From Candidatus Altimarinota bacterium (lineage in GTDB: Bacteria > Patescibacteriota > Gracilibacteria > BD1-5 > UBA2023), in NCBI GenBank assembly GCA_947373235.1, contig CANBWW010000001.1, positions 1 through 32,276 of the forward strand: a DNA stretch of 32,276 nucleotides. The letters run 5' to 3'. How positions within the stretch are numbered: position 1 is the first letter of the stretch; each line of letters begins with the position of its first letter. Position numbers and translations under genes: made by a program. Under the pieces are notes generated by a model that saw only the letters and a list, made by a program, of their open reading frames with translations, was not told the DNA's origin and made no database searches. Below, one piece after another: positions 1-32,276 of this stretch.

Positions 1-45
1 AATCACCTCTTCAGAGCTCTCATCTCGATATATTTTCAAGCTTTC

Positions 46-3000
46 ATGCAGTTTCGTTTTTATCAAAAATATACATCTGCAATTCTTATTTTCCTCCTTT
101 TTCTTACTCAGACTGTTCAGGTCTCTTTTTTTGACCATACAGAAGCTGCTACAGAGGATTATCATGATGTGGTTTCTATCGTTGTCGATACTGACACGTA
201 CAGCGAATTGAAGTGAGATATTAAGCAATATAGTCAAGATATACAGACCTACCTCGGATCTACTCGAGTGTCTCTTTTTGTCGTTCCAAAAAATACTCCA
301 CCGGAAGCGATCGCTGCACAAAATGAAAAACTCTATTACCAGGGGGACTGAAAGGATGGGGTTTCATCTCTTGTAGGGACTATTTTGATCGGAAATGTTC
401 CGATTCCAGTTGTCGAAAAAGATGGAGAATCGTTCCCAAGTTTGTATCCATATGTGGATTTTGATGATAAACGTTTTGTGTATGATCCTCAGATAGAAAA
501 ATATACTTTTTCCAAAAATACTAATGAAACCAGTGATGTAGAGATATGGCATGGAGTTATCGATCCTGCACTCGGAAGAGCTTGGAATGGCGAAAGTGAT
601 ATCCAGAAAATAAAATGATTTCTTGCAAAAACTCATGAATTTTATCAAGGAAAATGAAAATTCACACCTTCAAATATACCTCCACGGGTATTTTATTATG
701 ATGGTTATAATGAAAGTGCAGCAATCGGTTCGAGAGAGTTATATCAGTATGCACTCTTTATAAAAAATGCAGAAAATATCGCATATGGTCGTTTTACAAA
801 ATACTTGCTTTCTGATATCAATGATGCCCTGAAACTCTATGATGCAACGAGCCCTGATAGTATAAAAACGACCGATATCCCGAATTTTTCAGAACTTCAA
901 AAAGAAAATCCTGATCTTGCGAATATATCTGGTGATACTCTCACACCAGATATGCTCAAGAACCTTTCAGATATACAGAGTCAAAATATTATCAATAGTT
1001 TTATAAAGAGATTTTATGAGATTATTAATTCCAAAACTCTTGGAGATGAACGACTCTTTGTCCATAATGCTGGTCGATACAATAATGGATCTGATGTACG
1101 GGTTGATCAAGGTTCTGTGGATGTTTCTTTGCTCGATGAGACTGCCCTCAATACTATAAAAGGTGCAAATGATGCTCTCGAAACAGCCATCAATAAAGTT
1201 ATCACTGATGCGAATTATGCTCGTAAAATCCCTATTTTTGATTCCTATCAGAACTATAAAAATACTAATGATTATGATAATACCAGAGATGCGAATAAAG
1301 TGTATCAAAATTATTTTCTCGGAACAAAAAGTACCCAGATCACCGATCCAAAACAGTGTACGATTGCAAGATGATCGACTATAAATGAGCAAAGTCAGAT
1401 GTGAAAGGGAATACTCGTAGAAGCAAATACAACTTTTGATATTAATTCTATTTCATGACAGATTGGTTACCTTTCTGGTGATACTGATGAACTCGTAAAA
1501 CTTCATAAGTCTTCGGATTATTCTTGTTTTGATCCGAACACGAGTGAACCAAAACTGAATTCTTACTGGCGGAATAATAGTTTTCTCAATTTTTCAACTT
1601 CTCCTTCGACGAATCCAACAGATATTCTTTTTGGTCCTCTGTGAACTGCGAGTTTTACTGGTATGAGTCTCCCGATTTCTTCCCTCGGAGGGATGAAAGA
1701 ATCAGACCGTGTAACTGCACCGTCTATCAATAATTGTCTAGATAATTCTTATCAATTCGCACTGCTTCAGCCATATACTTTTTCTTATGATATTGGTTAT
1801 CGGTCTCATGGATCTGATGAATCTTATAGTTGTAATTCTTCTTGGCCAGATGAATGGAATACAAGTGGGGCTTATGGTTGTCAACAAAGAAGTACAGAAA
1901 CTCCACGATTTACGTGTCTCACAGAACAGGTTCCTCTTTCACAAAGTATTTCTACAAAATTTTCTGATCGACTTCCCGATTATTCATGACAATCATGTTT
2001 TGCATGAAATCTTACACTTGATGGAAAAGTTATAAAAACAGCAAATAGTCCTTGTATATACTATGATAGAGGAGATGATAACTCTCATCAACGTGATGAT
2101 ACAGTGTATCAAAATCTTTCTTATCATACGATTCCCTCACTCCTTACGCATATTTCTCCAACGTCAGAAGAAATAGGTGCTGCAACTGCAAATTCTATCA
2201 CCCCAAACATCCCTGTGGATATGGTACGAAGTGTAGATTTTCTGACTCCAAAAGGAAATATAGCGACTTTTACGTATCCAGATTTTTTCAAAGCTCCGGG
2301 GAATACCGTTGCAGAAATGCGAACATACCTGAAGAATCTTTCAGAGAGTGAATGGAATAAAGTGATCACTACTGAAAATGGAACGAATTTGACCTCAAGT
2401 GAATCTGGTGCGAATCTTGCCTTGGGTGCAGGTATTTTGCCTTCGACTCCAATTGATTGGAATTCTCTGATTTCGGACAGTGTACTTATTCAAGTTTTGC
2501 AAGCTAAAAACTGGATGCATCCAGATGTTTCGAAAAAATATACAGATGCCCTGACGAGTGATCTTTCTTACAGTCATACTCTCTGAGGTGATGTGTCACT
2601 CGATCCTCCAAAAACTCCAGGAACTCGAGATGGATATGAGATAGCGTATCTTGGGCTCACATCTTTTCAGCCGACAGGGGAGAGTGGCTCAACTGATCAA
2701 AATACGAGTATACAGGCCTACAATCAAAAAATGGCAACGCTCCAAGGACTCAATGTTTCCGATACGGATATTTCAGATAATCCATCATCTGGGAGTGATC
2801 CATATCCAGATAGTACCGCGTGTGGTGATCCTGGATGAGTCGATATTTTTCAGTGGCCAGCAGCGGTTGCTTGTTGGATCAAGACCGTAAAACCAAAAAT
2901 TTCTTCTGGAATGTGTGGTGGAAATACTATTGGTATGGGCTTACTAAGTGTTCCAAAGGCGACTATTCCTGATGGTGTTTCGAGTGATTCTCAGGCATTG

Positions 3001-6000
3001 AAATCTTACTTTGATGCTTCTCAGCTTACTTATTCTCTTCCGAGAACGGTGATGCAAAAATCTGACTCCGTTTCTGTGAGTTTTGACTTTCAAAAAAATG
3101 GCGCTCATATCGACCTTCCAGAAAATACGAATGTAAAACTCGATATCATTTCTCTTACCGATACAGACGGAAAAAATATTTCTCTCGATAAATCGGATAA
3201 TCTTCTCCAAATTGCACCAGCAAGTCAGCCATATGGATCTGAAAAAACGACATTTCTCCTTACTTCTGGATGACAACTCTGAAGTGTAAAAATAAGATGA
3301 ACGCTGACGACTGCACTTCCAGATGGAACGACATACACAAGTTTTTCAGATGATATCGTCATAAGAATCAGCGATGAGTATCTCGATGTATCTCCGACCG
3401 TACAAGGCATAGAAGCAAGCTCCATCGATACAACCCTCCTTGATCCAGTGAAACTTTCGTTGACTGCAAAAAGCAATCAAAATAATGCCTCTATATCATC
3501 AGTACTTCCATATACACTCGATATCTATGATGATATTTCTGATGAATTACTTGCTTCAGATATTCAGATACATTCTTCCACTGACTATAGCATTCCAATT
3601 GATTATACCAAAAAAATCTGACTCTATAGATTTGAGATTCATGACCAAGCTTGAAGATTTGGGGAGGCGACTCTGGCAGTTCGTTCATGACCATTGGCAA
3701 AATCCAACTTCTTACCACTTTCAGACACGATTGTAAAAAATATTGATTCATACGGTGCGATCGATCTTCTCGATGCAAAAGATAATCTTCTTACACCAGA
3801 GCTTCATACCATCGAATTCGAAGCGCAAGGATGATATCTTGTCGATAGTGATGGAAAACATGTTCAAAAAATGTCGATACAAAGTATAGATAGTGAAATT
3901 CCCCTTGCTTTCGGTGCTGATGCTGCCTGAAAAATAAATATTTCTTATTCGATCGATGGAGTTGTGACGGCTTCTCGCCAGATCGACGTCGTTAATATAG
4001 CAAAAATAAAAATCAATCGTCGTTGAACTCCTGTGGTTGGTGGTCCGGCGGTTTCTATTTTTGCTGAAGTAGTTGATGAAAATGATCAGCTTCTTTCAGG
4101 ATTCCATTCTTCGATTTCATTTTCTCTTCCGACACTCGCGGGTTCTTTTGCTACTGGAACGGTTGCTATAGAAAATGGTAAAACAGATGATTTTTCATTT
4201 CTTCCTGGTCGTGTTGCTGGCCAACAGATGCTTTCTATATATGTTCCTGGAATCGGAACTATCCCAGATGTTCCGTTTTCTATTTCTCCCTGAGCGCCAT
4301 TTTTTATACAGTCAGCTCTCGGCGATGACTTTACGACTTTTAGTGTCGAAGACCGATATGGCAATCTTGTGCCAAAGGATTTTGTAGGAACTTTGCAGAA
4401 AGATGTTGATCCATCTCTACCGATAAACTTTACTGCGGGTATTTATAGTACACCAAGAACTCCTGGATATTTTACTGCGACCGTTCCAGAAATAGCCAAT
4501 TCGAGTATTTCATATACTGATACTGATGGAGTTCATACGATTTCTGGTATTCCAAGTACACCGATTTTTGTTCCTACACCGAAACAGAAATTTGTATTCC
4601 GTCCTGATTACAATGCACGATATACGGTTTTTGCTGGAGATAGTTTTTTAAGAGAATCAGAAAATATCCTCTATGACACAACTCCTGGAGCTTCTCAAAG
4701 TCTCGCCGCAAGTACACTTCTCACTTCACCATACCAGACAGAAAATTATTTTTCTATCTTTCCTGGAGGTGGATATAGCCTCTGAAATGCTTCGGATATA
4801 CTCATGAAGGCAAGTGCTCATCTGGAAAAAAATACATTGATTTTGGAAGCTTCTGACAGTGTGAGCCATACGCGTATTGCTCGTGTTTCCTATCCAACGA
4901 GTGGACTTCTTTCGAGTGTGTGTGAAGAAAGTTCGACAGACTCTCAAGATTGTCTGACCGTTCCTTCATGAGGAGGTATCAGATTTATTACGTATAAAGA
5001 TGGGCAATATCAGACTCAAAATGATGGAAATATCATGACGATCGCTCAGTCTGGAAATATCAAACTTCGTTATGATAGATCTGCATGACTCGTCCTCGCT
5101 GCTGGTATCACACTTTCTCCTGTTTCTGCAGATTCCAGTGCGGGACTTCTTCTTGATGTGATAGATGGAGACAAGTCGATCGGTCGTATATTTCTTGCAA
5201 CTGATCCAAAACTCTGAGTACAAAAATCAGCTGATATATTTCTTCCAGCTTCGACTCCTGTTCTTGAGTCTACTCATCCATATTTGGAAAAACCAGTCTA
5301 TTCACAGATTTTTGATTCCCAAAATGCTGGCTATAGTATCTATACCAAACCAAAAACATCGGATCTAGATGAGACGATGATCGGACCAAATTTTATAGAT
5401 TCTCTCGGTTCTATAACGGATACTGCTGGTGTCGGATGGCATGATAAAAATCGTATGATGCTTTCTTATAGCGCTGGCGATACCGTGGGTGAAGCAACCA
5501 AATGGTTTCAGACGTATACGATGGTCAATCTCTGAGATCCAGTCGCCCATGTAGACGTATGAGCGGTTGGTACAAATCAAGAAGGGATCGATCGATCGAT
5601 CGGTACGGAACTTGCTTCTGGTGCACGTGGAAATATTGTTTCTGTTGCCCATCATGATATGAACAATGATGGCTATGAAGATGTGATCATAACCTATGAT
5701 GATGGTTTTGTGGAACTCTATCTCAATCTGAATGGTCGTTTTAAAAAAAGTCAGATGATCGGATATGTACCAAATATTTCTCCTGATCAACTTTCTTTTT
5801 GAGATTTCACAGGAGATGGTTTTTCCGATATTATCGGACTCAATGATTCGGGATGACTCCTCTTCATCGATAATAGTGATAGAAAATTTGTCCAAAAACC
5901 AATTTCTCTCGATGATTCCTCCGCTTCCATTCCAGATCATATCACTCAGTATAAGATCTACGATATGGACGGAGATAAAAAGGAAGATATTGTTTATCTG

Positions 6001-9000
6001 ACTGAAGCTTGAGAACTCTGAGTTCTTTATGGAACACAGACGGCATGAGTTTTTTCGAAACATATAGCGGACTCGAGTTTATGAGTTTCACTTTCACCTG
6101 ATGCAGAAACTGGATGAGGAGTTTTTCATGCAAATACAGTACCAAACACTGTTCCACAGAGTACCGATCCAGAAAATGATACGAGCCTCATTCAGGCAGA
6201 TGTCTACTATCATCGAACACTTCCGAGTCCTTCGAGTGATTCGACAGTGACCTATTCACAAAATGATTCAATCGATACTATTACCAATCTTTCTCCATCA
6301 AGTCCACAAAATGCGACTACTTCCAATTTTGTGTATTCAGAATATGCACCTGCTTTTGGTCTCGATATACAAAAAACATATAACAATATTTCTGCTGCAA
6401 AACTCCATGCAGGGGATCTTATACAAGTGGATATCGCACTGAAAAATACAACCACGAGTACACTGTCACAGATAGAATATCTAGATACGATTCCCAAGAT
6501 TTTTGATCCGAAAGATACAAAAAAATATCAACTCATTATCGATAATGAAGCAACAGAGAAAAACTTTGTTCCACTCACGAGTGGTGATTTTGATGCTGAC
6601 TTTATAGGAATGGATATTCCTGCAGGAAAAACCCTCCATATCCGATATACTCTGAAGGCACTTCCTACGACTTATGGAGAGATGCAGGTGGGAAATCTCC
6701 AAAAATGACAAGTATGAGAAGATGGATATTGAGATATTTGATTCAATGCTTCTACGACCTGCGGAACGAGTATGATGCTTTGGAAATCTACGTCTGGACG
6801 TACTTTTTCGAAGGGAAGTGCTGATTTTTCTCAGCCGATAGTTCCTACGAGTATCCAAAATCAGATCGATCAAACCAATGGTGAAATCGCGGGTGCCCAG
6901 CATCTTTCGAGTACGAGTTCTACACTCTGAGCATTGACGAGTGACTACAATAATATGTCTGAATCAAATGGTTCTGTATCGGCCCCGTTTCAGGCAAATG
7001 TACAACAAAGTGGTCAAAATTATGTAGCATCACTCGATCCAAGTCCTGCATTTACTCAAAAAGTAACGACCATGGCTCAAAATATTGCAGATTGACTTTC
7101 TTGTGGATTTGGTGGGGGGTCATGCATGTCTTTTCCTATGAACTGGGCACCACTCGCACCAGGAAGTGATCCGGTTCTTTTTGGGAAACCTGTCGGAGAT
7201 GGTCTCAAAGTAGGCGAGGGTATTCCTCTTTTTAGTGGATTAACCGGATATCCTTTGCAAGTTGGTCCTGTCTGTGTCCCGATTCCAGTCGTGTGGCCTG
7301 CATCACCTTTGGCATGGCCAGCCCAAACATGCCCAACTTCAAACTATGAAGCTGGATGGGCAGAAGTCGGGTCGATCTTGGCATCAGGATGACATCAGCC
7401 AGCTTCACCACTTTTAGGTGCCGGTTGAATGTTCGGTATATCGAGTCCAACTAATTTTCTCAGAATTTTTGTAAGCCCAACACTGACCCTTGGAGTTTGA
7501 ACTGCTATCTGTATGGGTCCAGCAAATATATGATGACAATTTCCACCGAAATGACTTTCACCATTTATTCCATGAGGAAACTGTATCGTTCTGGCAAAGC
7601 CGATGAATGTCTGTAAGGGTGATGGTTCAAGTGCTGATGGAGATGTTCAAGGGGTTTCATGACTGTGAAGCGTGACAGATGCATGGAATGCAGGAAGTTG
7701 TAGTATAAAAGCAGATACTTCTACGGATATCGCAACCACCAATAAACAAACAACACAAGATATTATCTCCTATTTACAAAACCCAGATACCAAGAAAGTA
7801 AATGATATCTATGCTTCTCTGGCAAAGAGAGGTCCTCGAAATCTCTCTTCAGGATGACCACTTCTGAGTATGGGTGATAATAGTTCCTGAACGAAGATCG
7901 ATGTAGATATCGATACGACGAAACCCTTCGATATGCATAATATCGTGAAGGTCAATAATACTCGTATTCCAGGTTTTCCTGATTTTATTATGGATTGGGT
8001 CGCACGTCAGACGGATGAGATTACGAATAAGCTCATGACTCCACCGAATATTGTCGTTATTCCGCCAAGAAATTTTAGTCAATATGGAACTTCGGATAAG
8101 AGTTTTTCAAATTTTTCTGATGCATTTAGTCAAAAAGCATATGTCGATGCGTATGCGAATTTCCAACAAAAACTCTGACAAGCGGGAAATACTGATGTTG
8201 CTTCCAAGCTCACAAATATGACCACTTCTCATAGTGATCTTTCTGCTGGGTATGAGAAGGCACTGGATGGATTTATCCAAAATCATGCTTCTGCCTTAAA
8301 TAGTGCAAAAGGTGGAGTAAATCAAGCAAATGCGGTCTTCCAATTTCTTGGTCAACTTCCATTTCTGAAGGTACAAAAAACGCAAGTCGCGATCAATGTT
8401 CCGTGGATTCTTCCCCAAGAACTCGATCGATATGCTCGTACTTTATCTCAATATTCAGCTGAACTTGATAGAACTGAAAAGCAGTGGTGTGCAGGAAAAA
8501 CTGCTGCCCAATGTACCGATATTCATGCGAATGCCAATGTTTCTGCACTGCGTACAAGTATCCAGAAAAATTTGGCGATGATCGAGACGTATAAACATTT
8601 CCCTGATAAACTCCAAAAATATCTCACTTGGAAACAACGATACATTGCTGAAATCATGTGTAACGTGAACGCTTTCGAACAGATGATCGGAGGATGGTAC
8701 AACGATAACGGTATCCGATTTCGTAAATGGGCCGAGTTCTATGTGCTCGTCAAGACAGTGATGGAAAGTTGGCAACCAGTGATTGATATATTCAAAAAAT
8801 GAGATGCTCAGTGTTCTGTCTGTCGAAATGAACGATGAGATCTAAAATACTATAAGATCAAACTTATCAGTATACTTATACCGACCCTTCCGATTATCCA
8901 ATTTCCGAGATGGCCAGATATTGTCCTCGATCTTTCTGATATTCGTATGTGACTCACGATCGCCGTACCAGAATTTAACTTTCGTATCAATCCGATCCGT

Positions 9001-12000
9001 CTTCCAAATCTTCCGCTCTTAAATCTTCCTGCACTTCCATCGATTGGTCTTTCATTGCCACCACTCCCGATCCTTCCAGCGATTCCAAATCTCCCAGATT
9101 TACCAGATCTTCCATCATTTCCTCGTGTACAACTTCCATCGCTTCCACCACCACCAAAACTTCCAAAAATATTTGGTTCTCTTTCAGCATCTCTCTGACT
9201 CCTACAACTTTTCCAGAAAATCCGTTGCTATATGGAGAAAACGATTCTCGTCCCAGAGTGGCAAGCTGGATCAGTGATCGCTGATAGAACAGAACGACAG
9301 GGGACATTGAATCTCGATTTTCTCAAAGTACAACTTCCACAGTATGCTGTACCAACTATCCGAGAAATCCGAGTTTCTACACATATTGACTTCGAAAAGA
9401 GGACAGATTTTATTACTGAATTCGCACAAAAAGCGGTGAAACCAATAAACTCATTTAGTGCGGATATACAGGGAAGTGTCCAAAGTTCTCTTGATAAAGC
9501 TGGGCAAGATGTCCAAAATGTTGGAGCTGGAATACAAAATGGAATCGATAATGCAACGAAGGATCTCAAAAATATAAATCTCAAAGTCGATGCCAATGGA
9601 AAAGTCATCCAATCTTCACTCGATGAATCGAATGAGGATTTTGATCAAAAGACTTTTTCAGGGTTGATCGCTTCACTCACATCTGAGAAAGATACACTTC
9701 TGGATACAGATGATTTTACAGATGATTTATTGAAAGAAATGCAACATGCTTGAGAAGATACCACCGTTTTGAAAAATTCTCTTCAAAAATCTAAAATAGA
9801 AAGTGACGAGATAACGAAGTGAATGGAGAAAAATTTCCATGAAAATATGCAGCTTTTCTATAAATATCTCAATGCGGAAACAGCTGATACGAAGGAACAA
9901 GAAAAAATGATCGAACGACTCAAGTGAGATATCCCAACACCACTCGTAGATGCCGATTTACCACGTGCGCATTTTGTTTCTGATGAAAGTAGTCTTTCTG
10001 ACGGAGCTCTTGATGATTATAATTCAGCTATTTTAAAAAATCAGAATACAGCTCAGATTTCTGTCTCATCAGGTAATTCGAATATTCAGGCTACAGAACA
10101 TCTTCAGTGAAAATTGGGTCGCCTTCTCGCTGCCAATACTCTCTCTACGCCCACAACAACCCCATCTGATACGAGCTATGCCCCTTTGTATACAGGTATT
10201 TATGTACTTACACCGAGCGGAGTTCAGACAAAATTATTTGATTATACAGATATTCTTGATCCAGCTGAGAAGCCACAAGTTTTTGATTTTGATAAAGATG
10301 GTGACGCTGATTACCTCTATATTCTTGGATGAGTTGTCTATGTAAAATATTCTTCCTTACATACACCAAAGAAAACTATTGATACCGATATAAGTTTTAG
10401 TGATCTCGATATTTCTGCTCGTCCACAGGCTCCAAATTTCTTTGATGAAACAATCTCAAGTCCAGGGAATATACAACTCTCTTTCACTCCTGCTGACGAG
10501 AGAGATCGTGATTTTCGCCTCGAATTTTTCGATCGATATACTCAATGGGATCTTGCTACTCTCAATGAATGAAAGCCAGATCTGAATGCACCAAAATCAA
10601 CGGTTGATTTTTTTGTAGAAGATCCCGGTGATACACAAAAATCCGATGGATTAGAAGTGACAGCGATTCCTGAAGTTCTCCAATCAGTCGATCATCCAAG
10701 TGGATTTATCCTCCAAGGTATGAGTGGTGTTCCGCTGAAATCTGGTACCAACTTCACACTCACCGCTGGAAGACCAATCTATACTGGAAATACTGCAGTC
10801 CGTTTGACTTATACTCTCAGTTCAGGTGTTTCTCAGTCTCTCGATATGAAAAAATATCAAAAATATGTCTTTACAGGAGATATTTCTGCTTCGATCGTTT
10901 CAGGAAAAGCATATATTTTAACACAAAGTAGCTCTGATCGTTTGGTGTATTCTGATGATTTTATCGGTATGCCGATCCTTCCAGGTACACATATCATCAA
11001 CACGGACTGATGATTTACTCTCTATAATCCAAGTCTTGATCGTTCAACGGATATTTCTACAAACGAAGAATACAGAAGTGTGTGACTCTGAGTACCTGAT
11101 GAAAGTTACCAAGTAAACTTTCCATACATGAATGGTTTGTATAGTGGAAAACTCACCGCACTTTCTCCAAGAAATCATGATCCTGTCTCTGCAGGAGTGA
11201 CACTCTTAGCACCGCTCGCTGCTCTTGATAACAGTGCTCCAGTTGTCGATATCGCTTCAAAAATCCAGATTCCGGTATATGGAAAAATGGATTTTGATTT
11301 GAAAGATATTATTTCTGATATGAGTCCGACTCATGTTTCTATTGATCCTGATACGACCGTCGATGAAGATAAGAACTGAGTGTATGATGATGATTTTGTA
11401 AGTGCATGAACTGGTGTTAAAATCAATTCAGGTAGTATTGTCTTTGGTCCTTTCGATAATCTTGGAATACATATGATGAATCTGAATGCAGTCGATGCCT
11501 ATGGAAACCAAAATCTCGTTCCTTTAGAGGTTGATGTATTTGCTCCGATTCCACAGATTAAAAATATCGATACGAATGGTATCATTCATTGATTGATTGA
11601 TCCGATTACTACACTGGAACCGATTCATTTTTTCAGAATTCGTACCGGAAGTCCATTGAAACAATTATTTCCTTCGAGTACTCTTACAAAAAATGATGGA
11701 ACTTTCGAGACAGGAAGCGTGTTTATTGGAAGCGGTGTAGATCTCACTTTTGGTGGAACTTCTCATATATTGGACCAAAATTCCTGACTTCCATCGACTG
11801 GAGATAATCTCAAATTCACTGTTGCATCCGCGACAAAAGATCATCCAATGATTTTTACTATTCATGATTCATCTGGAACTTCTATCCTTGATCAGACGAT
11901 TTCTCTTCCCGAAAATACTCGATTCATGCTCAATCCAACAACGACTGATATACCAAAAGTTCCAAGTGTCGTGATCAATTCTTCTCAAGGATATCTTTCA

Positions 12001-12237
12001 CAATCAGCAAATCTTCTCGATAAGAATATTCCATGAGGTGTCTATATCACCGATAATTCCTACAATCCTATTGCCACGATTGCACAAGATGGACAGATAT
12101 ATGCAATTGTTTCTTGAGTAACTCTTTCCGCAAAAAAATATGGTGAATTTCTTTCGACCAGTATTCTTTTGAACTGAAAAGAAATCACAAATGTGAAATA
12201 TCTGGTGAATTTCTTTTATACTGTCAATAATCACTAA
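46..12237 (+). CDS. Giant secreted/surface multidomain protein (4063 aa when TGA=Gly); likely adhesin or host-interaction protein, overall function unknown
   Basis: Frame +1 has no TAA/TAG from position 1 to the TAA at 12235-12237 but carries about 74 in-frame TGA (manual codon scan). All 20 track ORFs from 385..618 to 11848..12036 lie in this one frame. The ATG at 46 is followed by a signal-peptide-like MQFRFYQKYTSAILIFLLFLTQTVQVSFF. Recognisable pieces: FG-GAP/VCBS-like Ca-binding repeats (DMNNDGYEDVII, GDFTGDGFSDII, YDMDGDKKEDIVY at ~5560-6060; FDFDKDGDADYLY at ~10280-10320), Ig-like (Big-type) segments at ~4030-4400, a DUF11/CARDB-like segment at ~6390-6700, and a Leu-Pro repeat at 8992-9165. 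The frame is open to the left edge, so an upstream start cannot be excluded. Confidence 0.85.
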
Positions 12238-14997: not shown

Positions 14998-16977
<1,980 letters not shown>

Positions 16978-16984
16978 TCAATAT

Positions 16985-17014: not shown

Positions 17015-17031
17015 ATAAGTTCTATAAAAAC

Positions 17032-17059
17032 TTGCAAGCCGAACTTCATTCCATACAAT
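17032..17059 (+). promoter_or_regulatory. Sigma70-like promoter candidate for the pilin gene
   Basis: TTGCAA (17032-17037), 16-nt spacer, TACAAT (17054-17059), 24 nt upstream of ATG 17084. Confidence 0.4.
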
Positions 17060-17083
17060 AATTCTCAATTCCTCATTTTTTCT

Positions 17084-17668
17084 ATGCACTCCTTTCGTTT
17101 TTGAAATTCGGGTTTTACTCTTTTTGAGATGATGATAGTTATAGCTATCATTGGTATTATGTATACTTTTACGCTTGGTTTTACTGAAAATCCATCCATT
17201 TATAGGGAAAAATCTATCCGCCTTCAGAGTTATATAGAGGATGAACTCAAGTGAGCGCGCACAAGTACTATGATCGGAAAGTGACCAAAAGACGCGAGTA
17301 ACAATATATTATTAGTTCAAAGACGTGATGTTCTCATATCCACTGGGAATGTACAGACGATATATTCCTGAGCGACGAATACTGGAACTGAACGACAAAT
17401 AAAATCCCCTTTTTTTGATGGAGATGCCAAGTATAAGCTTAATAAGTTTTATGGCACATGTGTTCTAGGTAATACTACTTTTTCCTGAGTGACACAAGCA
17501 AAAATCACGTACGAACAAACAAAAGATATCCAGATTATCACTGTTCCAACAGTGTGTATAGCATCGGCTGATTCGATTCGAAAGATTACTTTCGAATCCC
17601 AGTATCAAAATTATACAGGTTCGGTTACTCTCGATCGTATTTCTGGGATTATTTCTACAGATAATTAG
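17084..17668 (+). CDS. Type IV pilin / pseudopilin-like protein with prepilin N-terminal cleavage-methylation motif (194 aa)
   Basis: MHSFRFGNSG|FTLFEMMIVIAIIGIM: class III signal with Gly at -1 (17111-17113), Phe +1, Glu +5 (17126-17128) and a hydrophobic helix. Two C-terminal Cys (GTCVLG..., TVPTVCIAS) are compatible with a pilin disulfide loop. Six in-frame TGA; stop is TAG at 17666-17668. Confidence 0.85.
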
Positions 17669-21700: not shown

Positions 21701-24609
21701 TCGATGATATACGTGCCGGGTCTGTCCGAGTAACCAATCCAGTTGATATGATTGTGGAAAGTGGTTCCGTCGAGCGTACAGATTTTTCGACTCGATTCAA
21801 TAACTATCCCCCTTGAGAATATCATTTTATAGTGACACCTGTTATGGATGGTAAGGTGCCTGAAGAAATGATTTCTGATACACTTTTTTATATTTCTGGC
21901 GATACTTCTTCTTTGAAAGATTCGAAACTTCGAGTTATTCCCGATAAAACTATATATCAACCAGGAGAAACCGCTCATGTCATGATTCAACTTCCATTTA
22001 CAGGATCATATTTATTGATTACGGAAGAAAAATGAGGCATTCTCAAAAAAGAATACACCTATGTTACAGGAAATACACTTATGCGAGATATTGTCGTCGA
22101 TGATAGTCTTCTTCCAAATGCATATATAGGTGTGGTAGCATTACATCCGTCTCTCTGAAGTATACTTGATACCAATCGAAGTTATGCTGTTTGATATGGG
22201 GAAATTATTTCTGATATATCTTCTAAGAAATCTATCGTTACCATAAAAACTGATAAAGAAACCTATAAAAATAGGGAACACGTACAAATGGATCTTTCAC
22301 TGACTGATAAAGGAGGAAAACCTCTTCAATGAGAGATCACTGTGATGGTTGTAGATGAAAGTCTGATACGTCTTTTAGGAAATATTGATCTCGACATCAT
22401 ACCAAAATTTTTCCAGAAATTTCCATTTACGATGAAAACATCACTTTCAGATATTGGTATCGAAAGAAATAGATACCTCTCACGAAAATGATCCAATGGC
22501 GGAAGTGGTGATAAATGAGGATGAGGAATACAGATAGCATCACGAACGATTTTTAAAAATACTGCTTACTACAATCCAAGTGTTATTACCGATCCTTCTG
22601 GAAATGCAAAGATTGGATTCGATCTTCCTGATAATGTTACTGATTATCGTATCATTGCGATTTCGAATACACTCGATTCTCATTTTTGAGCTGGAGAAAA
22701 AACTATACAAGTTCGAAAAGATTATGTCGTCGAAGCACATGCTCCCACGATCGTTCGACAGGGTGATACTTTCACCATTTCTACAAATGCCTTTAACAGC
22801 ACTAAGAAAATAACGGGAGCGAATTTGATTATCAAAATCGGTACCGGATCCAGCATGATACAAAAACAGTCATCTATTATACTTAATCCACTTCAGTGAA
22901 CTGGTTCAGATTTTCTTTTTTCTGTTCTTCCTTCTTGGACAGGTTCTCTTTCCTATACTGCCGAATTAAGAGATGGAAATATGGTTTTGGATAGTGTGAC
23001 TCAAAACTTGAAAATCGCACCGATCCCGCTCATAGAAAACACTTTTCGGTCTGTTCATGTTTTTACTGGAACTTCTTTGACGATATGACTTCCGCCGCCT
23101 GAAAAAAGTACTGATCTCGATTTCTCGAAAGTTGGATTAGAGTTTTCTCTCTTTCGTGCGAGTGAATTAAGCAATTCTTTTAACTCGCTTCTTTCATACC
23201 CCTACGGTTGTATCGAACAGACGATAGCGGCAACTCTTCCAAATCTTTTTGCACTCAATTTTGCCGATACCTTACATCTTCCGATTGATCGAAATGAGGC
23301 GATCAAGAATCGTGATGCGTGATTGCAAAAAATCCTTCGCATGCAAGATCCAAGTGGTGGATGGTTGTATTGGGAGGGAAATACAGAACCAGATATTCAT
23401 ATCACTCCATATGTATTGCGCTCACTCCTTGTATTGAGAGATCTTGGAATATCCGTTCCTCAGTCAGTGATCGATCAATGAATAAGCTATATTATCACGA
23501 ACCAATCTTCATATGAAGCTGATCAAAATCTCTTTGCTGAATCTGTATGGACACTTGCATCTTTTGCTCAACCATGAACGAAAGATTGGTGGAATCGCAT
23601 AGATCCAACAAAGCTCGATCGGCATGGATATCTCGCATATGTATATACTGCACATATCCTCAAACTTGATACATCTTTGCTCGATAAAAAACTTGCTGAA
23701 AGTATGAAAAATACTCCAAAGAGTGAAGATTACTGGTATTGGGATCGTGATGCTGATTTTGCTATCTATGCTCGTCTCCTTATGGATCAATGAGAGGATT
23801 CCAGGGCTCAAGAAATCATTACCGATATTCTTTCTCGAGTGGATATGAGTTCATATTATGTATCTACACAGACAAAAATTCAGATTTTTCTGTCACTTGC
23901 TCGAGATATTAGAAATCAAAAAATGAATTTTTCACCGTTTTCCGTCGCTCTGCGATGAGACGGTATTATCACAGATGCTCATTTTTCCCTCCAAAATCCT
24001 CTTGCAAATATAGAAACTCTGAGATCAAAACTCTGACTTTCTTTTCAACTGACTCGTGATCCAAATGATCACCCACTATTCATCACAATGAATATAAAAG
24101 ATCGTCCAAAAGATATTTTTCAGATGCAAGGAGTCAGTGCTGGATGAATGAATCTCAAGAGAAGTTTCGAACTGATTGATGAATCTCGATGAATTGATTC
24201 TGATGGACATTTTATCGTTTCAAAGCCAGTAGATGATATGATTTTTCATCGATGACAACTCTATCGAGTCACTTTAGAATTAGATTTTGATACAGACATT
24301 CCATATTATGAAATGACTATGGAAGACTTTTTTCCTGGTTGATGGAGACCGATTGATAGTATTCTTCGTACTGAGAGTAGCTTTCATAGTGAAAGTGCAC
24401 CATGAACTTATTGGGATCATGTCGAGTCACAGGATGATCGTCTTCTTGCAAATATGTCATATGGATATGGTAAAAAACAAATTTATAGTTATTATATACG
24501 TCCGGAAAGTGTTTGAGAATATTTACTTCCACCAGCAACTGCCTATCTTATGTATCGACCCAGTGTTCATAGTTATACACAGTACGAAAAAGTAAAGGTT
24601 GTAGAATAA
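18796..24609 (+). CDS. Bacterial alpha-2-macroglobulin family thioester-containing protein, N-terminally membrane anchored (1937 aa)
   Basis: Frame +1 is free of TAA/TAG from ATG 18796 to the TAA at 24607-24609, with about 37 in-frame TGA; track ORFs 19282, 20527, 20902, 21403 and 21832 are all in this frame. Thioester motif LLSYPYGCIEQTIAATLPN (CIEQ at 23209-23220). A2M C-terminal receptor-domain-like end MEDFFPGGWRPIDS...WDHVESQDDRLLAN...YSYYIRPESVGEYLLPPATAYLMYRP. The N-terminus MRNINRIFLSFFAFFFVATLGYYAYLLSF is hydrophobic and has no lipobox Cys. Confidence 0.9.
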
Positions 24610-24782: not shown

Positions 24783-24811
24783 TCTATTTCCTCACTTCAT
24801 TTGAATTATGA
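24783..24811 (+). repeat. Direct repeat copy 2 (29 nt), containing the nrdR start codon
   Basis: tctatttcctcacttcatttgaattatga. Its ATG (24808) is the nrdR start. Confidence 0.7.
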
Positions 24812-25254
24812 AATGCCCAAAATGTAAAAATCTTGATACGAAAGTAATCGATTCTCGAAGCACCGAAGACGGAAAGGCTATCCGAAGAAGGCGAGAGTGT
24901 GAAAAATGTGGCGCACGTTTTACGAGTTTTGAACGTCTCGAATTCGTATCATTTCTCGTCGTGAAATCTTCATGAGAAAGTGAGCCTTATGACCGAACGA
25001 AGGTACAAAGTTCTATGCTCAAAGCACTTACGAAACGTGCTTTTATTCCAGAAAAACTCGAAGATGCGATCAATGGACTCGAAAATGAATGGGCACAAAA
25101 TAAGCAGGGAATTACATCGAAACGTATCGGAAGAGATATACTGAGAAAACTGCGTGATCTTGATGAAGTAGCATTTCTCCGATATGCATCTATCTACCAT
25201 AATCATGACAGTGTAAAGTGATTTGTGAAATTCATCGAAGATGAGCTCGGATAA
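24808..25254 (+). CDS. nrdR: Transcriptional repressor NrdR (zinc ribbon plus ATP-cone, 148 aa)
   Basis: [45 protein letters not shown] (CxxC...CxxC ribbon), then ATP-cone VVKSS-G(TGA 24973-24975)[10 protein letters not shown]...[29 protein letters not shown]. Reads through a second TGA at 25219-25221; stop is TAA at 25252-25254. Confidence 0.93.
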
Positions 25255-26248
25255 TATGCAAAAAACTCAAGAACACACTTTTCCTACTATAGAAATAGTA
25301 CCACTTGGTACTGCTTTTCTTCGAGCTCCACTTCTTTCAGATCAACTGATAACTCATATACAGGAACGTATTTCGAAACAAGAAAAAGTTCTTATTTTTT
25401 ATAATCGTCGTGGCTCTGGACGAGCTTTTATATGCCAAGATTGCGGTTATTTTCCGAGGTGTCCTCATTGTGATATTGCCCTTTCTCACCATACCAGTCC
25501 GAAAAATATTCTTCTGTGTCACCATTGCAACTATATAGAAAATCATAGTCTTCTGTGTCCGAATTGCCAAGGAAGTCGATTTCAGAGTATTGGTATCGGT
25601 ATACAAAAAATCGAACAGGATTTGTCCTGATTTTTCCCAAATGTATTGATGACTCGCATTGATTCTGATATCGAGATGAAGAAAAAAGAACTCCTTCAAA
25701 AAGTACAGAGTTCTGATATTGTTCTTTCTACCTATTCGAATATTGCCTTTATTCATCAAGATATCGCTGAAGTCATTTTTCTGCTCTTTGAGTCAGATCT
25801 GACCCTTCCAGATTATCGTATCGAAGAAGAAAGCTACCATACGATCGACTATATAAAAAAATCAGAAAAATCTATACTGATACAAACCTATACTCCTGAT
25901 CATCCACTTTTGCATATCATTTCCGAGGGAAATTATAAGGATTTTCTCGGTTATATAACTCCTGAAAGAAAGAAATTTTTATATCCACCGTATGCACAGT
26001 TTGCACTTTTGCGTATCCATGATATAAGTAAAGATCGTCTTACGAATATCATCGAAAAAATAGTAAACAAGATCGAAATTCTCAAAAAAGATTCCACTTT
26101 TCTCGCATATGATCGTGATATATGGGAACGATATCGTGGTGAATGGGTTCAGAAAATAATTCTCAAAGATATCGATCTTTCTTATATACTCATAGAACTG
26201 GAAGTTGAGATCGTAAAAAATAGAGCCGTAACACTCGAATATCGATAA
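25241..26248 (+). CDS. priA: PriA-like protein: C-terminal part only (helicase lobe 2 remnant, Cys-rich zinc region, C-terminal domain; 335 aa)
   Basis: KVLIFYNRRGSGRAFICQDCGYFPRCPHCDIALSHHTSPKNILLCHHCNYIENHSLLCPNCQGSRFQSIGIGIQKIEQDLS-G-FFP...RIDSD...ILIQTYTPDHPLL...YPPY aligns with the PriA C-terminal half. All four CxxC pairs are present. An in-frame TAA at 25214-25216 blocks any upstream extension, so Walker A/B (lobe 1), the winged helix and the 3'-DNA-binding domain are absent. Overlaps nrdR by 14 nt. Confidence 0.8.
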
Positions 26249-26251: not shown

Positions 26252-27853
26252 TTAGATCTGTATTTCATTTTTCTTTACTATCGTCCAGGCAAATACTCAG
26301 AGAATAGATAAGCCAAATATAAAGAAGAATGCTGGAAAACCAAGCCCAACCAGCAATCATCCAAATACCAGACCGATCACGTTTGCGAGATTTTGTACGA
26401 CTTTTATTGGTCCAGAAGATGCATTTGCATCGACTTCTTTCAGTTTTAGATGATTTGCATAGACACGATTATAGATTTCAAGAAATTGATTTTGTCCCGT
26501 GGACATGCCACATGCATACCCGAGACTATTAATGAGTGCAATTCCTATTATGATTGCAGGGCTGGGAGTACTTCAGAGTGCCAATACTCCCATGATGATC
26601 AAAGATACTCCTGAAAGAATAAGTCCGATCATTCCTATCGTTTTCATTCCTATTTTTTGACCGAGTTTGCTCGCTTGTTCTTGAAGCACGATTCCAGGAA
26701 CCCCTATGATTGCCAAGAGAATATAACTCCAACCTGGCTTAATATTATCCAGAAAATCGAGAAGAAAACTCGATGCAAACGTATCCCAGAATCAGAATAT
26801 AAGGACTAGGCTAATCGTCCACATGAGTCAAAGATAGATCGGATGACTTGTAAAAATTTCCCAGATAATTTTAAATTCTTTGAGACTGGATTTCATAACT
26901 TCTTTCCAAGGTATTTTTTCTCATACTACTTTCTGTTTTGGTTTCATCATGAGATACTTTGTATTTTCTAGGACTTTTTTGATGTCTGCTTTCTGCACAG
27001 TTTCCACGATGTACTCTTTTACATTTTCTTTATTCCATTTTTGTATAGAGATTCGAAATGTATCGATGTCACTGAGTGTAACTGAGTCGAGAGAATTATC
27101 GAAAAATCGAATCGTGAAGATAAGAAATGCTGTAATCACCACTCAGAGAAATATTACAGCAAAAGCAGGATTAATAGAAAGTACGACTCCAGCTAAGAGC
27201 AGTCAGATAAGTGATCCGATACCGAAAGTGATATTATTTCGAGAGAGTATAGTTCCATATTCACTTGGATCTGCATGAGAAAGGACATATCCATATGTAC
27301 AGACATCATTGATTTCTTTTGTGATTCCATAACAGATCGATGCTACGATGACTCATACCCAACTGAGCGCACTGTTAAAAAACCAATCATTTCCTGCTTT
27401 GAGTGATTCTGGAGTGATCACACCACTCACGAAGTGTAGGATGCTGAAAAACTTAAAAATAAAGCCAAAAAATATTCCTGTTGCTATGAGTTGGGAGATC
27501 GCACCGATGATGAACATTTTTTTGGTGGATATATGTCTCTGCAGGATTCAAAGTGGAATATCAATACAAAAAGAAACAAAGTTTGCAAAACCCAGAAAGA
27601 CTCCTACGAGAGCCACACTTTGGAGAAGAAATGTAAAAAAGAATACGACCGAAAAATGAAAAATCATCCAAGCAAATCCTTGAAATGAATTTGTGAGATA
27701 AAAATTTCTCAATCGATATCCATCGAGTTTGGTTTGTACCGAGATAATAACAGGATTCTCCTCTGATGATATATGATCTGTTTGGTTTTCAGAAGCAATT
27801 TCCAGTGTAGAGATATCGAGATTTTCAGATTTTGATACAGTATTTTCTTCCAT
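26252..27853 (-). CDS. Multi-pass membrane transporter, probably major facilitator superfamily (533 aa)
   Basis: The minus frame joins track ORFs 27548..27925 and 26921..27142 and continues through TGA to the TAA at 26252-26254. About 12 hydrophobic segments split by a long central loop. MFS motif-A-like IPLGILQRHISTKKMFIIG lies after TM2. Start placed at ATG 27853 (MEENTVSK...); the TTG at 27925 is an alternative. Confidence 0.7.
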
Positions 27854-28007: not shown

Positions 28008-28042
28008 CAAAATAAAAATCCGCCTATTTTTCAGCGGATTTT
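28008..28042 (-). terminator. Rho-independent terminator candidate for the 129-aa gene
   Basis: Inverted repeat aaaatccgc / gcggatttt (28015-23 and 28034-42) spanning the TAG stop, followed on the minus strand by a T-rich run (tattttg). Confidence 0.55.
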
Positions 28043-28413
28043 GACTCGGGGATCTGTGCTATACTTCTGATAAGATGAAACTTACTGGCATTGTGATATT
28101 TTTGGACTGCATCGAGTTCCATACGTACTTGTTTCTGATTTCGAAACTCGGCTATTTTTCTTTCCGCTTCCTGAGCATTTTGTGCATCTTTCAGTGTATC
28201 AAGGATATCAACTGCTTCTTCCAGAAGTGCACGATTTGCCTGATCGATTTCTTTTCGTACCATGACCATCTCGATGATATAGTGTTCCCAATTATCGAGA
28301 ATTCTGTACTGTCTTTCCGGTGTGAGAGCTTCAAAAATCACCGCTATATTATGGCGATCTTCGACTGAAAGAGGAGATCTTTCGAGGAGGGTAATGAGAC
28401 GGACATTTCCCAT
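28024..28413 (-). CDS. Hypothetical protein (129 aa), predicted mostly helical/charged
   Basis: Uninterrupted ORF with ATG start and TAG stop, and no upstream in-frame ATG before the preceding gene's stop. No family recognised. Confidence 0.6.
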   Translation of the reverse strand: MGNVRLITLLERSPLSVEDRHNIAVIFEALTPERQYRILDNWEHYIIEMVMVRKEIDQANRALLEEAVDILDTLKDAQNAQEAERKIAEFRNQKQVRMELDAVQKYHNASKFHLIRSIAQIPESKSAEK

Positions 28414-28497: not shown

Positions 28498-28764
28498 TTA
28501 GGCAGATTTTTCCGCGTCTGTAAGATAAATAGGATCGTTGGCTGCTACTTGTCGAAATACTTGATTATTAGCATCAGTTGCCTTTCGATATGCTATGATT
28601 GTGTCTATAGCAACTTTTTGTACTTCTGGTCGGAGAGATTGTAATTGTGTGATAATATTATTCGCTTCCTCCGCATACATTTCTTGAATTGAGACAATAA
28701 CAGCTGGATTCAGTTTGATTCATTCTGATCGCTCAGGATTTGATGTCGGTGATCGTGTAACCAT
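28498..28764 (-). CDS. Hypothetical protein (88 aa with one TGA read as Gly)
   Basis: Track ORF 28498..28680 extends upstream through one TGA to ATG 28764 (MVTRSPTSNPERSE-G-IKLNPAVIVSIQEMYAEE...), bounded by an in-frame TAG further upstream. Double TAA TAA stop. A TATAAT box lies 10 nt upstream of the ATG. Confidence 0.5.
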
Positions 28765-28915: not shown

Positions 28916-29620
28916 TTATACTTCATAACGGATGGCTTCGATCATCCTTTCTATTTTCGGATCGAGTGGAGTTTTTGGCATTTTTGCATCCACGATCACA
29001 TACATATCTCCTGTTTTCCCATCACTCGACCGACCTTTTCCAGATATTTTAAATCTCGTACCTGGCTTGGTTCCTGACTTTATCTTGAGCGAGAGCACTT
29101 TTCCATAGATGGTTTTTACCGAGAGGGAAGTATCAGAAAGAAAGTCAAAAAATGGGATTTCCATCGTTTCTGTAACATCGAGATTGGGGATTTCTTTTTT
29201 CTCTTTTGGTTCTTCTGTTCTTTCTGTTTTTCGACTTCTTCTTCCGCCAAAAAGATCTCCAATATCGAATTCAAAGTTTTGATTTCCTCCACTTCACATC
29301 CCTCAAAACTGTGAAAAAATATCTTCAAATCCTCATGAATTTGAAGAAGATTGTCTATATCCACCGCCTTGGAATGGGTTTCCACCTCCAGAAAATGGAT
29401 TTGCTTCTGCAGAACCAAATTGATCGTAGTTCTGCTTTTTTGTTTTATCACCGATCGTTTGATAAGCTTCGTTCACTTCTTTGAATTTTTTTTCTGCGTT
29501 TTTATCGTCTTTATTCCTATCAGGATGAAACTCTAACGCTTTCTTTTTATACGCTTTTTTTATCTCAGCTTCACTCGCAGTTTTGCTTACACCAAGGACG
29601 TCATAGTAGTTTTTGCTCAT
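28916..29620 (-). CDS. Minimal J-domain co-chaperone (DnaJ/CbpA-like; J domain, G/F region, single C-terminal beta-domain; no zinc finger; 234 aa)
   Basis: [39 protein letters not shown] (HPD motif), then a G/F-rich region read through three TGA ([32 protein letters not shown]). The C-terminal domain is ...[40 protein letters not shown]. Track ORFs 29333..29620 and 28916..29164 are in the same frame (705 nt in total). Confidence 0.85.
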
Positions 29621-29705: not shown

Positions 29706-29711
29706 CAGTTT

Positions 29712-31610
29712 ATGAAACAGACTCCTGAAAACATCCAAAATATCCTTACCAATCTCCCTCTTACACCCGGAGTATATCAGATGAAAGATGCTTCCGGAAA
29801 GGTCATCTACGTCGGAAAAGCAAAGAACCTCAGAAGTCGAGTGAAGTCGTATTTTGATCGAACGGTGGATCTGAGTGCTGCGAAAAAACAAATGGTTGAG
29901 AAAATCAGAGATATCGAAACGATCCTCTGTCAAACCGAAGTCGAAGCACTCGTTCTCGAAACCAATCTTATCAAACACCTCACACCGAAATACAATATCC
30001 TCATGAAGGATGATAAAAATCTCGCGTATATAAAAATCACTCCATGACCTATTGCGATGGTACAAAAAACCAGACAGAGAATTCCTGACGGAGGAGAATA
30101 TTATGGTCCGTATGTGAGTGCTGTCGAACAATGTGTACGATATCTCAGAAAGGTTTTTCGTGTGCGAAATTGTCGGGTACGTTTTGGAAGAGCTGATGGA
30201 AATTTTTTTGTATCCGATAAAGCAGGGAAAACGATTCCATGTATGGATTATTATATAGGACTCTGTCCTGCTCCGTGTCTTCTGACCCCAGATGCTCTTT
30301 CGAAACATGAGCAAAATATTTTGTCGCTCAAAAATTTCCTCGACGGAAATACGACTCAAGTTTTCTCTGATCTCGATAGAAAAATGCGGGAACATGCGAA
30401 AAGCCTCGAGTTTGAAGATGCGGCAAATATAAAAACACTTATCGAATCTCTGAAAGTCCTTTCTGAAAGACAATCGGTACGAGATATTGCGACGGAAAGC
30501 ACAGATATTATCGTTTATTATGCGAAATATGATCGTCAGTTTATTGGTCTCACGATGATCCGACGTGGACAGATTGTCGGTGTATTTCGTCATGAAGCCC
30601 AGGCGAAGATCGATTTCACTGAGAGTGAAGTGATCGAACACTTCATCGCAGAACAATATCGTGATGAGAGTGATATTCCGAGTGTATTATTATTACAAAA
30701 GGAAAATGATGATTCTGTACTCTCTGCATTTCTCGAAGAAAAACGAGTTTCTCTGGAAGTTCCAAAAATAGGAAAGAAAAAAGAGTTGGTGGATTTTACA
30801 TTGAATCAAGTTCGTGAATATGCTTATAAGCTCGAACTTTCGAAGTTGGAAAACCGTATTTTGACTCGTGAACATATGGTGCACGTTCTGGAAAAAATCG
30901 GGTATTCAGTACCAAAAAAATGAGAAATCATCTTTGAGTGTTACGATATCTCTCATACGGATGGAAACTTTACGTATGCTTCTCGAGTGGTGATCGTAAA
31001 TGGAAAAGCAGATCCAAGTCGATATAAAAAATATAAGATCCAATCACTTCCAGAATGAAAAATAGATGACTTTGCATCTCATAGGGAAGTTATGATCAGG
31101 CGTACCCTTGAGGGTATAGAGATGAACAATTTTCCACATCTCATTATCATTGATGGATGAAAATGACAACTTTCTTCCGCACTCTCAGGAATAAAAGAAT
31201 GAATTTGGAAGTATCAAAATGATGTATCAAGATTATCATCCTGAGAGAGTCTGCCTATTTTATCTTCAGATATTCCACTCTGTTCCATTGCAAAAAGAGA
31301 AGAAGAGATATTTCTCCCATGAAAATCGGTTCCAGTCCTTTTCGAACATGGAACTCCTGAGCTTATGGTTCTTCAGAAAGCTCGTGATGAATCACATCGT
31401 TTCTCGATCACGGCCAATAGATCCGCTCGAACAAAAGCAATGAAAAAAAATATCCTCGAAGAACTTCCTGGTATCGGTCCAGTGACTCGCAAAAAACTTC
31501 TCAAACTCGCCGGATCTGTCGATGATATTCGAAATATTTCTCTCGCTGATCTAGAAAAGATATGTTCTGCGAGACAAATAGAAGCTCTCAAAGATCATGG
31601 AATTTATTAG
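29712..31610 (+). CDS. uvrC: Excinuclease ABC subunit C, UvrC (632 aa)
   Basis: GIY-YIG N-terminus (PGVYQMKDASGKVIYVGKAKNLRSRVKSYF), UvrBC-like region, endonuclease domain ECYDISHTDGNFTYASRVV, IIIDG-G-K-G-QLSSAL (TGA at 31158-60 and 31164-66 at the conserved DGGKGQ glycines), LQKARDESHRFSI, and C-terminal (HhH)2 LEELPGIGPVTRKKLL. Track ORFs 29712, 30057 and 31365 share one frame. Stop is TAG at 31608-31610. Confidence 0.95.
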
Positions 31611-32194
31611 GATTTTCTGTGTGCTAATCCTGATAAAAGGATTATCGTGAGAAATATGAGAAGTGCCATTCCTGGAATTGTCAGAAATCAAAATACAAAA
31701 ACTCAGTTATTATCGGTACATGCAGGAAGGAGTCCTCAAACCGTACAAGGAAGCTCGACGATCCTTCAGAGAACCCATCATTGGAAGTGATAATAGTAAT
31801 GATATCCAGCAAAAAATGACCCAAAAAGTGCAAGTATGAGTATGATAATATGATTTTTCCGAATTCCATAAAAAAGTGATATCAAAACGATCACGTCTAT
31901 CGGAAACATGAAAATCCTCTGCCACCAACAGAGTATACAAACTTCGAGCTCATAATAGAACTGATAAGTAAGGACTCATACGGTTGAACCTATTGCCAAA
32001 AAACCAATTATTCGCATACAATTTTCGTATGATAGAAATCTATCAATATGTTTTCTTGTTTTTCCTCCGAAAAGGATACCTATAGTGAGGATAAATGTGA
32101 GTAGAAAAACAGTAATACTTCCGATTCCTAAAATGATAGAGTATGTGTGGAGATTCATATTATGAGTTATAAATATTATGATGTTGTGCATCAT
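31607..32194 (-). CDS. dsbB: DsbB/BdbC-family disulfide bond formation protein (start uncertain: 195 aa from 32194, 136 aa from ATG 32017)
   Basis: Track ORF 31976..32194 continues through TGA: ...YYELEVCILCWWQRIFMFP (the CxxC-x2-QR signature of DsbB, CxxC at 31928-31939), further TM segments, and a second Cys pair PCTVGGLLPAC. Stop is TAA at 31607-31609. An extra hydrophobic N-terminal segment is present only if the start is at 32194 or 32158. Confidence 0.75.
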
Positions 32195-32276
32195 AATTCT
32201 TTCTTTGTAAAAAACAATTTTTTCACGAAATAATATTTTTCTATATAATCCTGATATGTATATTTTGGCCTTCGAA

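Follow-up and report, generated by a model that had tools for sequence, protein, structure and literature searches.

We analyzed a 32,276 bp stretch of DNA (contig CANBWW010000001.1 of assembly GCA_947373235.1, GC content 37.8%), hereafter referred to as the window, and found that TGA, a stop codon in the standard genetic code, is a sense codon in its genes. The window is almost certainly a chromosomal segment of an uncultivated member of the Gracilibacteria (BD1-5) that uses genetic code table 25, in which UGA encodes glycine, termination is restricted to UAA and UAG, UGG encodes tryptophan and the remaining codons keep their standard meaning. A first-pass annotation of the sequence had put forward glycine as the meaning of TGA, and this interpretation is supported here by the glycine codons (GGN) found in orthologous genes, by solved structures of homologous proteins and by Pfam profile scores, all of which favor glycine. 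The UGA-to-glycine code itself is already known, and the analysis uncovers no new biology.

When TAA and TAG are taken as the sole stop codons, the window resolves into a compact map of 15 genes that cover approximately 95% of its length, a count with which the gene calls of a syntenic European Nucleotide Archive (ENA) contig agree. The 10,468 codons of these genes contain 170 in-frame TGA triplets (169 if the gene at position 13765 starts further downstream), with neither TAA nor TAG in frame. The TGA triplets occur at a density of 16 per 1,000 codons and are found in 14 of the 15 genes, which are unrelated to one another. The first-pass annotation had described the genes as broken by TGA and never by TAA or TAG, which is what we observe; its assertion that every gene is broken in this manner holds for 14 of them and fails for the gene at 28024-28413, which contains no TGA. 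TGA constitutes only 58% of the off-frame stop triplets in the same genes, so an exclusively TGA set of 170 in-frame stop triplets has a probability of approximately 1e-40. As had also been proposed, the 15 genes terminate solely at TAA (12 genes) or TAG (3 genes), and none at TGA. The longest open-reading frame (ORF) spans 415 codons under table 11 and 4,078 codons once TGA is treated as a sense codon, a change under which ORFs of 4,078 and 1,946 codons appear. The same treatment of TAA or TAG was considered and rejected: the longest ORF remains at 415 codons, and none is lengthened.

The in-frame TGA triplets could alternatively be explained by a UGA that still signals termination, with pseudogenes, programmed readthrough, selenocysteine insertion or sequencing error accounting for the interruptions. 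The only point in favor of this explanation is the tRNA-SeC label that ARAGORN assigns by default to tRNA(UCA), whereas the TGA triplets extend to the essential genes ftsH and der, homology is found on either side of them in continuous frames, and TGA interchanges with GGN at the same columns in 29 other genomes. The gene calls of independent assemblies with 99.3-99.97% identity to the window are interrupted by TGA in the same way. Selenocysteine is further disfavored because none of the TGA codons of the window aligned to an orthologue cysteine codon. We regard the probability that UGA still terminates translation in these genes as negligible.

A more direct competitor for glycine is tryptophan, the meaning of UGA under table 4 in Mycoplasma and some insect endosymbionts. 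Table 4 yields long ORFs identical to those of table 25, since both codes drop TGA as a stop codon, and most public records of relatives have been translated with tryptophan at these positions: excess tryptophan (>1.2%) is seen in 96 of the 120 best UvrC homologues. This reflects gene-calling software and not biology. The 120 best UvrC homologues, sought as standard-code outgroups, all proved to be Gracilibacteria-like, and since most had been translated with table 4 they are circular evidence for choosing the amino acid. For comparison with relatives at the DNA level, a single genome from each GTDB species was searched with the Der protein, which yielded 29 loci. Orthologous codons were aligned gene by gene from raw DNA, a procedure that presupposes no particular code for the relatives, and were counted in well-aligned contexts.

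Among the 871 non-TGA orthologue codons that align with a TGA in the window, 633 (73%) are GGN, followed by serine (6%) and alanine (5%) codons; TGG accounts for five (0.6%). Classified by their commonest residue, 56 of 76 TGA columns are glycine columns and none is a tryptophan column. The pattern is the same in the reverse direction: orthologues carry TGA at 10.4% of the glycine codons of the window, at 0.16% of its tryptophan codons (a single instance in 623 comparisons) and at less than 1% of the codons for any non-glycine amino acid. In the resulting orthologue codon table, the exchange profile of TGA matches those of GGA, GGT, GGC and GGG. Inclusion of TGA raises the glycine content of the encoded proteins from 5.4%, contributed by GGN alone, to 7.1%, with UGA making up approximately 24% of the glycine codons of the window, whereas a tryptophan reading would raise tryptophan content from 0.77% to 2.4%. 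The observation that TGG is kept at conserved tryptophan positions was likewise borne out, both by the 1 in 623 figure and by the DLPWRK motif of MutY, which is identical in solved MutY structures.

To anchor the assignment outside of the clade, solved homologues from standard-code organisms were queried with an X at every TGA and used as outgroups together with Pfam profiles. The seven coordinates singled out in the first-pass annotation all correspond to in-frame TGA codons in the motifs given for them (where x denotes TGA): LLQxPPGTGKT in FtsH (15733-15735), IIIDGxKxQL in UvrC (31158-60 and 31164-66), QxLGYY (18448-50) and LPxVxP (18337-39 and 18331-33) on the minus strand in MutY, and VVKSSxESEPY in NrdR (24973-75). 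Glycine is found in solved FtsH (Escherichia coli, Thermotoga) at the Walker A and FFGxxY TGA positions, in solved UvrC (Thermotoga, Bacillus, Deinococcus) at both TGA positions of DGGKGQ, and in solved MutY at the GLGYY and both LPGVG positions; in the latter protein, proline occupies the TGA position of VKxYF and alanine that of AFxYG. The three TGA columns of DnaJ align to G, F and G in PDB sequences, and this alignment carries little weight because the G/F stretch is of low complexity. Overall, glycine occupies approximately 10 of the approximately 25 alignable TGA columns in solved homologues, the others being A, P, N, D, R, E and F, and tryptophan occupies none. The proposal that these TGA codons sit on invariant glycines stands for the FtsH Walker A motif, UvrC DGGKGQ and MutY GLGYY and LPGVG; it does not stand for NrdR, where E. 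coli has aspartate at 24973-75 and the position is consequently no invariant glycine, and it is weak for the DnaJ G/F region. Among orthologues, the NrdR position is GGN in four of four cases, and the FtsH Walker A column is TGA in 13 and GGN in 11.

The preference for glycine was quantified through a substitution test, profile-based and in the spirit of Codetta, in which each of the 20 amino acids was placed at 20 TGA positions in four joined TGA-rich segments of FtsH, UvrC, MutY and NrdR and the Pfam scores of six TGA-containing domains were summed. Glycine obtained the highest sum (550.4 bits), followed by alanine (541.2 bits) and the remaining residues (at most 538.8 bits), with tryptophan lowest of the 20 at 522.1 bits, 28 bits under glycine. 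The HHH model exceeds its threshold with glycine alone, and the score of the ATP-cone domain of NrdR peaks with glycine. As far as sequence comparison can establish it, UGA is glycine in the window and tryptophan is excluded; on these grounds we judge a table 4 reading to be extremely improbable. The window shares with the table 4 systems of the Mycoplasmatales, the Entomoplasmatales and several insect endosymbionts the loss of UGA as a stop codon, a low-GC reduced genome and the same ORF structure, and it differs from them in that its UGA corresponds to glycine, with tryptophan as the worst fit of 20 and TGA hardly ever exchanging with TGG.

Every other codon keeps its standard partner in the orthologue codon table. 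This bears on the related code of the Absconditabacteria (SR1): for some of these, and possibly for some Gracilibacteria, CGA and CGG have been predicted to encode tryptophan (Shulgina and Eddy 2021, PMC8629427). In the window, CGA is common and its 68 aligned columns pair with arginine codons in 71% of orthologue comparisons; for CGG, a small sample of 15 codons in total with six aligned columns, the figure is 55% arginine with no tryptophan. CGG also falls at arginine positions of solved homologues, in the DIERAT motif of FtsH (Thermotoga FtsH) and the GRHDLPWR motif of MutY. An additional reassignment of CGA, CGG, AGA or AGG was accordingly rejected, as all four behave as arginine codons. 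The window thus resembles the SR1 code in reading UGA as glycine and departs from it in that CGA and CGG pair with arginine and in that its nearest genomes are Gracilibacteria.

The usage of TGA among glycine codons is uneven across genes (chi-square over 13 genes, p=0.007), ranging from 1/29 in der, 6/61 in ftsH, 1/11 in priA and 3/26 in dnaJ to 9/18 in mutY, 5/16 in the pilin gene and 37/125 in the macroglobulin gene. Pooled, the first four genes have a TGA share of approximately 9% against 26% in the rest, a grouping that was picked after seeing the data. Such a pattern could be expected if the meaning of UGA were mixed or context-dependent, with codons read mostly as glycine and occasionally subject to termination or misreading as tryptophan, at a cost that keeps UGA from core genes. 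Wobble at U34 could in principle blur the distinction between UGA and UGG (PMC8629427), and proteomic data from another BD1-5 bacterium contain one tryptophan-fitting peptide next to 40 glycine-fitting ones (PMC4032931). Against this explanation, TGA terminates no gene, ordinary codon bias explains the uneven usage equally well, and TGA occupies invariant positions of catalytic glycines, at which misreading would do harm, and has been retained there in many orthologues, as in 13 of 24 for the FtsH Walker A motif. We hence consider a mixed meaning very unlikely. The broader notion that UGA decoding is costly or partly ambiguous, through occasional termination or UGA/UGG wobble confusion, is slightly less improbable and is still unlikely. 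If it were true, core genes with high expression would be under selection against UGA, and ordinary codon bias would produce the same pattern.

With UGA taken as glycine, published work on the clade suggests how the code would operate: a dedicated tRNA-Gly(UCA) would decode UGA, and release factor 2, the factor that would otherwise cause termination at this codon, would have been lost. Absence of prfB, the release factor 2 gene, is the expectation for UGA-reassigned Gracilibacteria (PMC8629427), and the glycine identity elements expected of the tRNA(UCA) are G1:C72, C2:G71, G3:C70 and U73. We scanned metagenome contigs with a tRNA-shaped pattern combining anticodon UCA with glycine acceptor-stem features, and among the 80 loci retrieved, ARAGORN identified a tRNA(UCA) in 49. 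GC content is low in these 49 loci, and treating TGA as a sense codon increases their ORF coverage from 0.30 to 1.36. A nearly invariant 79-nt tRNA(UCA), GCGGGGGTAACATAAAAGAGTGAGTGTACTAAGGCTTCAACCCTTGGGTGTGCCGGTTCGAACCCGGTCCCCCGCTCCA, appears repeatedly on metagenome contigs with a GC content of 35-41% (L043-L114, e.g. L054, L094 and L106); its CCA end is encoded, it often adjoins tRNA-Arg(GCG) or tRNA-Gly(GCC), and tRNA-SeC is again its default ARAGORN label.

No result of the analysis contradicts the glycine reading, which nonetheless has limits. Some TGA columns are not glycine in distant homologues (proline in MutY and PriA, aspartate in E. coli NrdR), these being variable columns. A tRNA(UCA) was detected neither in the window nor in 31 syntenic loci, and a 99.3% identical contig, which extends the sequence 5.3 kb upstream, did not reveal one either. 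Furthermore, the tRNA(UCA) genes recovered from metagenomes lie on other contigs, and their glycine identity elements were imposed by the search pattern; since the contigs belong to other organisms, these genes serve only to illustrate the published mechanism (PMC8629427). No tRNA of any kind was found in the window or the 31 syntenic loci, and the sole tRNA found near the window is a tRNA-Lys(UUU) located, on the near-identical contigs (L036 5085-5160; L038 52-127), approximately 150 nt upstream of base 1 and just upstream of the first gene.

The first-pass annotation had left the lineage at Gracilibacteria or SR1, and our results narrow it to the former. The Der proteins of the 29 genome loci are 70-96% identical to that of the window, with nearly all of the loci titled Candidatus Gracilibacteria and the best match reaching 96%, and gene order is common to the window and the Gracilibacteria loci. 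Judged by best hits and synteny, the lineage is Gracilibacteria and not SR1. Two syntenic loci (L008 and L026), with Der proteins 76-78% identical to that of the window, are titled Candidatus Peribacteria. Both carry in-frame TGA in der and ftsH, and the longest ORF of L026 grows from 588 to 3,288 codons when TGA is a sense codon. Peribacteria have been described as users of the standard code, and the titles of these two records look like mislabels. Look-ups with the TGA-free protein and a table 11 fragment led to public contigs with 99.3-99.97% identity to the window; they comprise GCA_947373525.1 (contig CANBYE010000001.1, 37,252 bp), GCA_947374085.1 and the Logan assemblies of ERR10482440, ERR10482442 and ERR10482444. 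A literature search for these assembly and run accessions returned no match.

Since phages with recoded stop codons exist, the possibility that the window belongs to a recoded phage or mobile element and not to a Gracilibacteria chromosome must also be weighed. Two giant secreted proteins with few recognizable domains could be taken to point in that direction, but the window encodes cellular housekeeping functions (der, ftsH, mutY, nrdR, uvrC, dnaJ, dsbB), phage-type genes were not seen in it, and its gene order is kept in contigs of metagenome-assembled genomes that range from 50 kb to 1.29 Mb. We find the prospect of a phage or mobile element so improbable that it can be set aside in favor of a chromosomal origin.

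The gene map opens with a giant secreted protein on the plus strand (46..12237; 4,063 aa from the first methionine, in an ORF that is open to base 1), which contains 74 TGA codons and ends in TAA. Its N-terminus resembles a signal peptide, and its sole recognizable domains are FG-GAP repeats (Pfam FG-GAP_3) near residues 1857-1930. The protein is conserved at approximately 40% identity in 25-28 Gracilibacteria loci, where its gene immediately precedes der, and it may be a cell-surface protein. The near-identical upstream region encodes another large secreted protein (L036 1626-4547, minus strand), of approximately 970 aa and with 34 TGA codons.

The giant gene is followed on the plus strand by the GTPase gene der/engA (12354..13886; 510 aa; stop TAA; Pfam MMR_HSR1 twice and KH_dom-like), whose single TGA (RVKTxVFNK) falls on a column with glycine codons in 22 orthologues, TGA in four and alanine in three; Bacillus subtilis Der has asparagine at this column. 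A membrane protein with no assigned function (13765..14880, plus strand; 371 aa from 13765; 6-7 TGA codons; stop TAA) comes next, with orthologue columns at its TGA codons being mostly glycine codons, for instance 20 of 20 at codon 181. Its start is uncertain, positions 13852 and 13864 also being candidates. The ftsH gene (14998..16977, plus strand; stop TAA; Pfam AAA and Peptidase_M41) encodes 659 aa with six TGA codons, that of the Walker A glycine (15733-15735) among them. A type IV pilin-like protein (16919..17668, plus strand; five TGA codons; stop TAG) carries the N-terminal methylation motif (Pfam N_methyl), and its true start is likely 17084, from which a normal short prepilin leader is obtained (MHSFRFGNSG|FTLFE) that itself includes a TGA-encoded glycine. 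The apparent overlaps of the 13765 gene with der (122 nt, 13765-13886) and of the pilin gene with ftsH (59 nt, 16919-16977) are probably artefacts of choosing the first ATG.

On the minus strand, a MutY-like adenine glycosylase (17665..18696; 343 aa; stop TAA; Pfam HhH-GPD) contains nine TGA codons, which include those of GLGYY (18448-50) and LPGVG (18337-39 and 18331-33). The second giant gene (18796..24609, plus strand; 1,937 aa; 37 TGA codons; stop TAA) encodes a bacterial alpha-2-macroglobulin, identified through its syntenic orthologues, which in loci L030 and L031 match Pfam MG2, A2M_BRD, A2M, TED and bMG10. The nrdR gene (24808..25254, plus strand; 148 aa; stop TAA; Pfam Zn_ribbon_NrdR and ATP-cone) has two TGA codons, one of them in the ATP-cone domain (24973-75), and its stop is overlapped by the start of a PriA-like gene (25241..26248, plus strand; 335 aa; one TGA; stop TAA; Pfam Zn_ribbon_PriA). 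The latter corresponds to only the C-terminal half of PriA: it aligns to residues 418-675 of the 747-aa Klebsiella pneumoniae protein and retains helicase lobe 2, the Cys-rich region and the C-terminal domain, without the N-terminal DNA-binding domains and the Walker A/B lobe. The short form is present in six related loci and is therefore no assembly artefact, and the gene may represent a split or truncated PriA.

The remaining genes comprise a major facilitator superfamily (MFS) transporter (26252..27853, minus strand; 533 aa; 10 TGA codons; stop TAA; Pfam MFS_1), for which glycine is the top or joint-top orthologue codon at 7 of 10 TGA columns, and two small minus-strand genes. The first of these (28024..28413; 129 aa; stop TAG) is the TGA-free gene, a conserved hypothetical protein with tblastx conservation in five loci and an exact copy recorded in NCBI and Logan contigs. 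The second (28498..28764; 88 aa; one TGA; stop TAA) is a hypothetical protein from the ORF scan, and a 96-aa gene has been called at the matching position of L030 and L031. A DnaJ-like J-domain protein (28916..29620, minus strand; 234 aa; stop TAA; Pfam DnaJ and DnaJ_C) lacks the zinc-finger domain and has three TGA codons in its G/F-rich linker. The uvrC gene (29712..31610, plus strand; 632 aa; stop TAG; Pfam GIY-YIG, UVR and UvrC_RNaseH) has eight TGA codons, including both of DGGKGQ (31158-60 and 31164-66). The map closes with a DsbB-like membrane protein (31607..32194, minus strand; 195 aa from the first methionine, in an ORF open to the window end; six TGA codons; stop TAA; Pfam DsbB). 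A search against Rfam at gathering thresholds gave no match in the window.

The use of UGA as a glycine codon in Gracilibacteria was predicted earlier, has proteomic confirmation and is already listed as table 25. This table is credited for the Gracilibacteria (BD1-5/GN02) to Rinke et al. 2013, as cited in PMC8629427; proteomic confirmation was obtained in another BD1-5 bacterium (Hanke et al. 2014, PMC4032931), and Codetta assigned UGA to glycine in 13 of 15 Gracilibacteria species (PMC8629427). The window matches this system in its UGA glycine codons, its UAA and UAG stops, its UGG tryptophan codons, its low GC content and its shared gene order, and differs from it in nothing of kind, representing one more species-level lineage.

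The value that the finding retains is practical and concerns public annotation. The expectation of the first-pass annotation that standard-code annotation would shatter the genes proved accurate: on a 99.3% identical NCBI contig, the recorded gene calls are standard-code fragments, with 51 calls over 30.6 kb. UvrC is divided into three parts (111, 288 and 81 aa), DnaJ into two (95 and 82 aa) and the giant protein into approximately 20; PriA and both giant proteins are likewise fragmented, and domain matches are lacking for most of the pieces. Fragmented standard-code calls are also recorded on four contigs that are 99.3-99.8% identical to the window (L032, L033, L036 and L037, from GCA_947373525.1 and GCA_947374085.1). 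In two UvrC records (P0002 and P0039), which were checked against their DNA (L030 10001-11902 and L031 10001-11872), every TGA (11 and 22 codons, respectively) is written as W, including those of the DGGKGQ glycines. Taken together, the fragment calls and the W-translated UvrC records indicate that the public data for the clade are partly fragmented and partly mistranslated, and these sequences need to be re-translated with table 25 before they are used in homology search, structure prediction or phylogeny.

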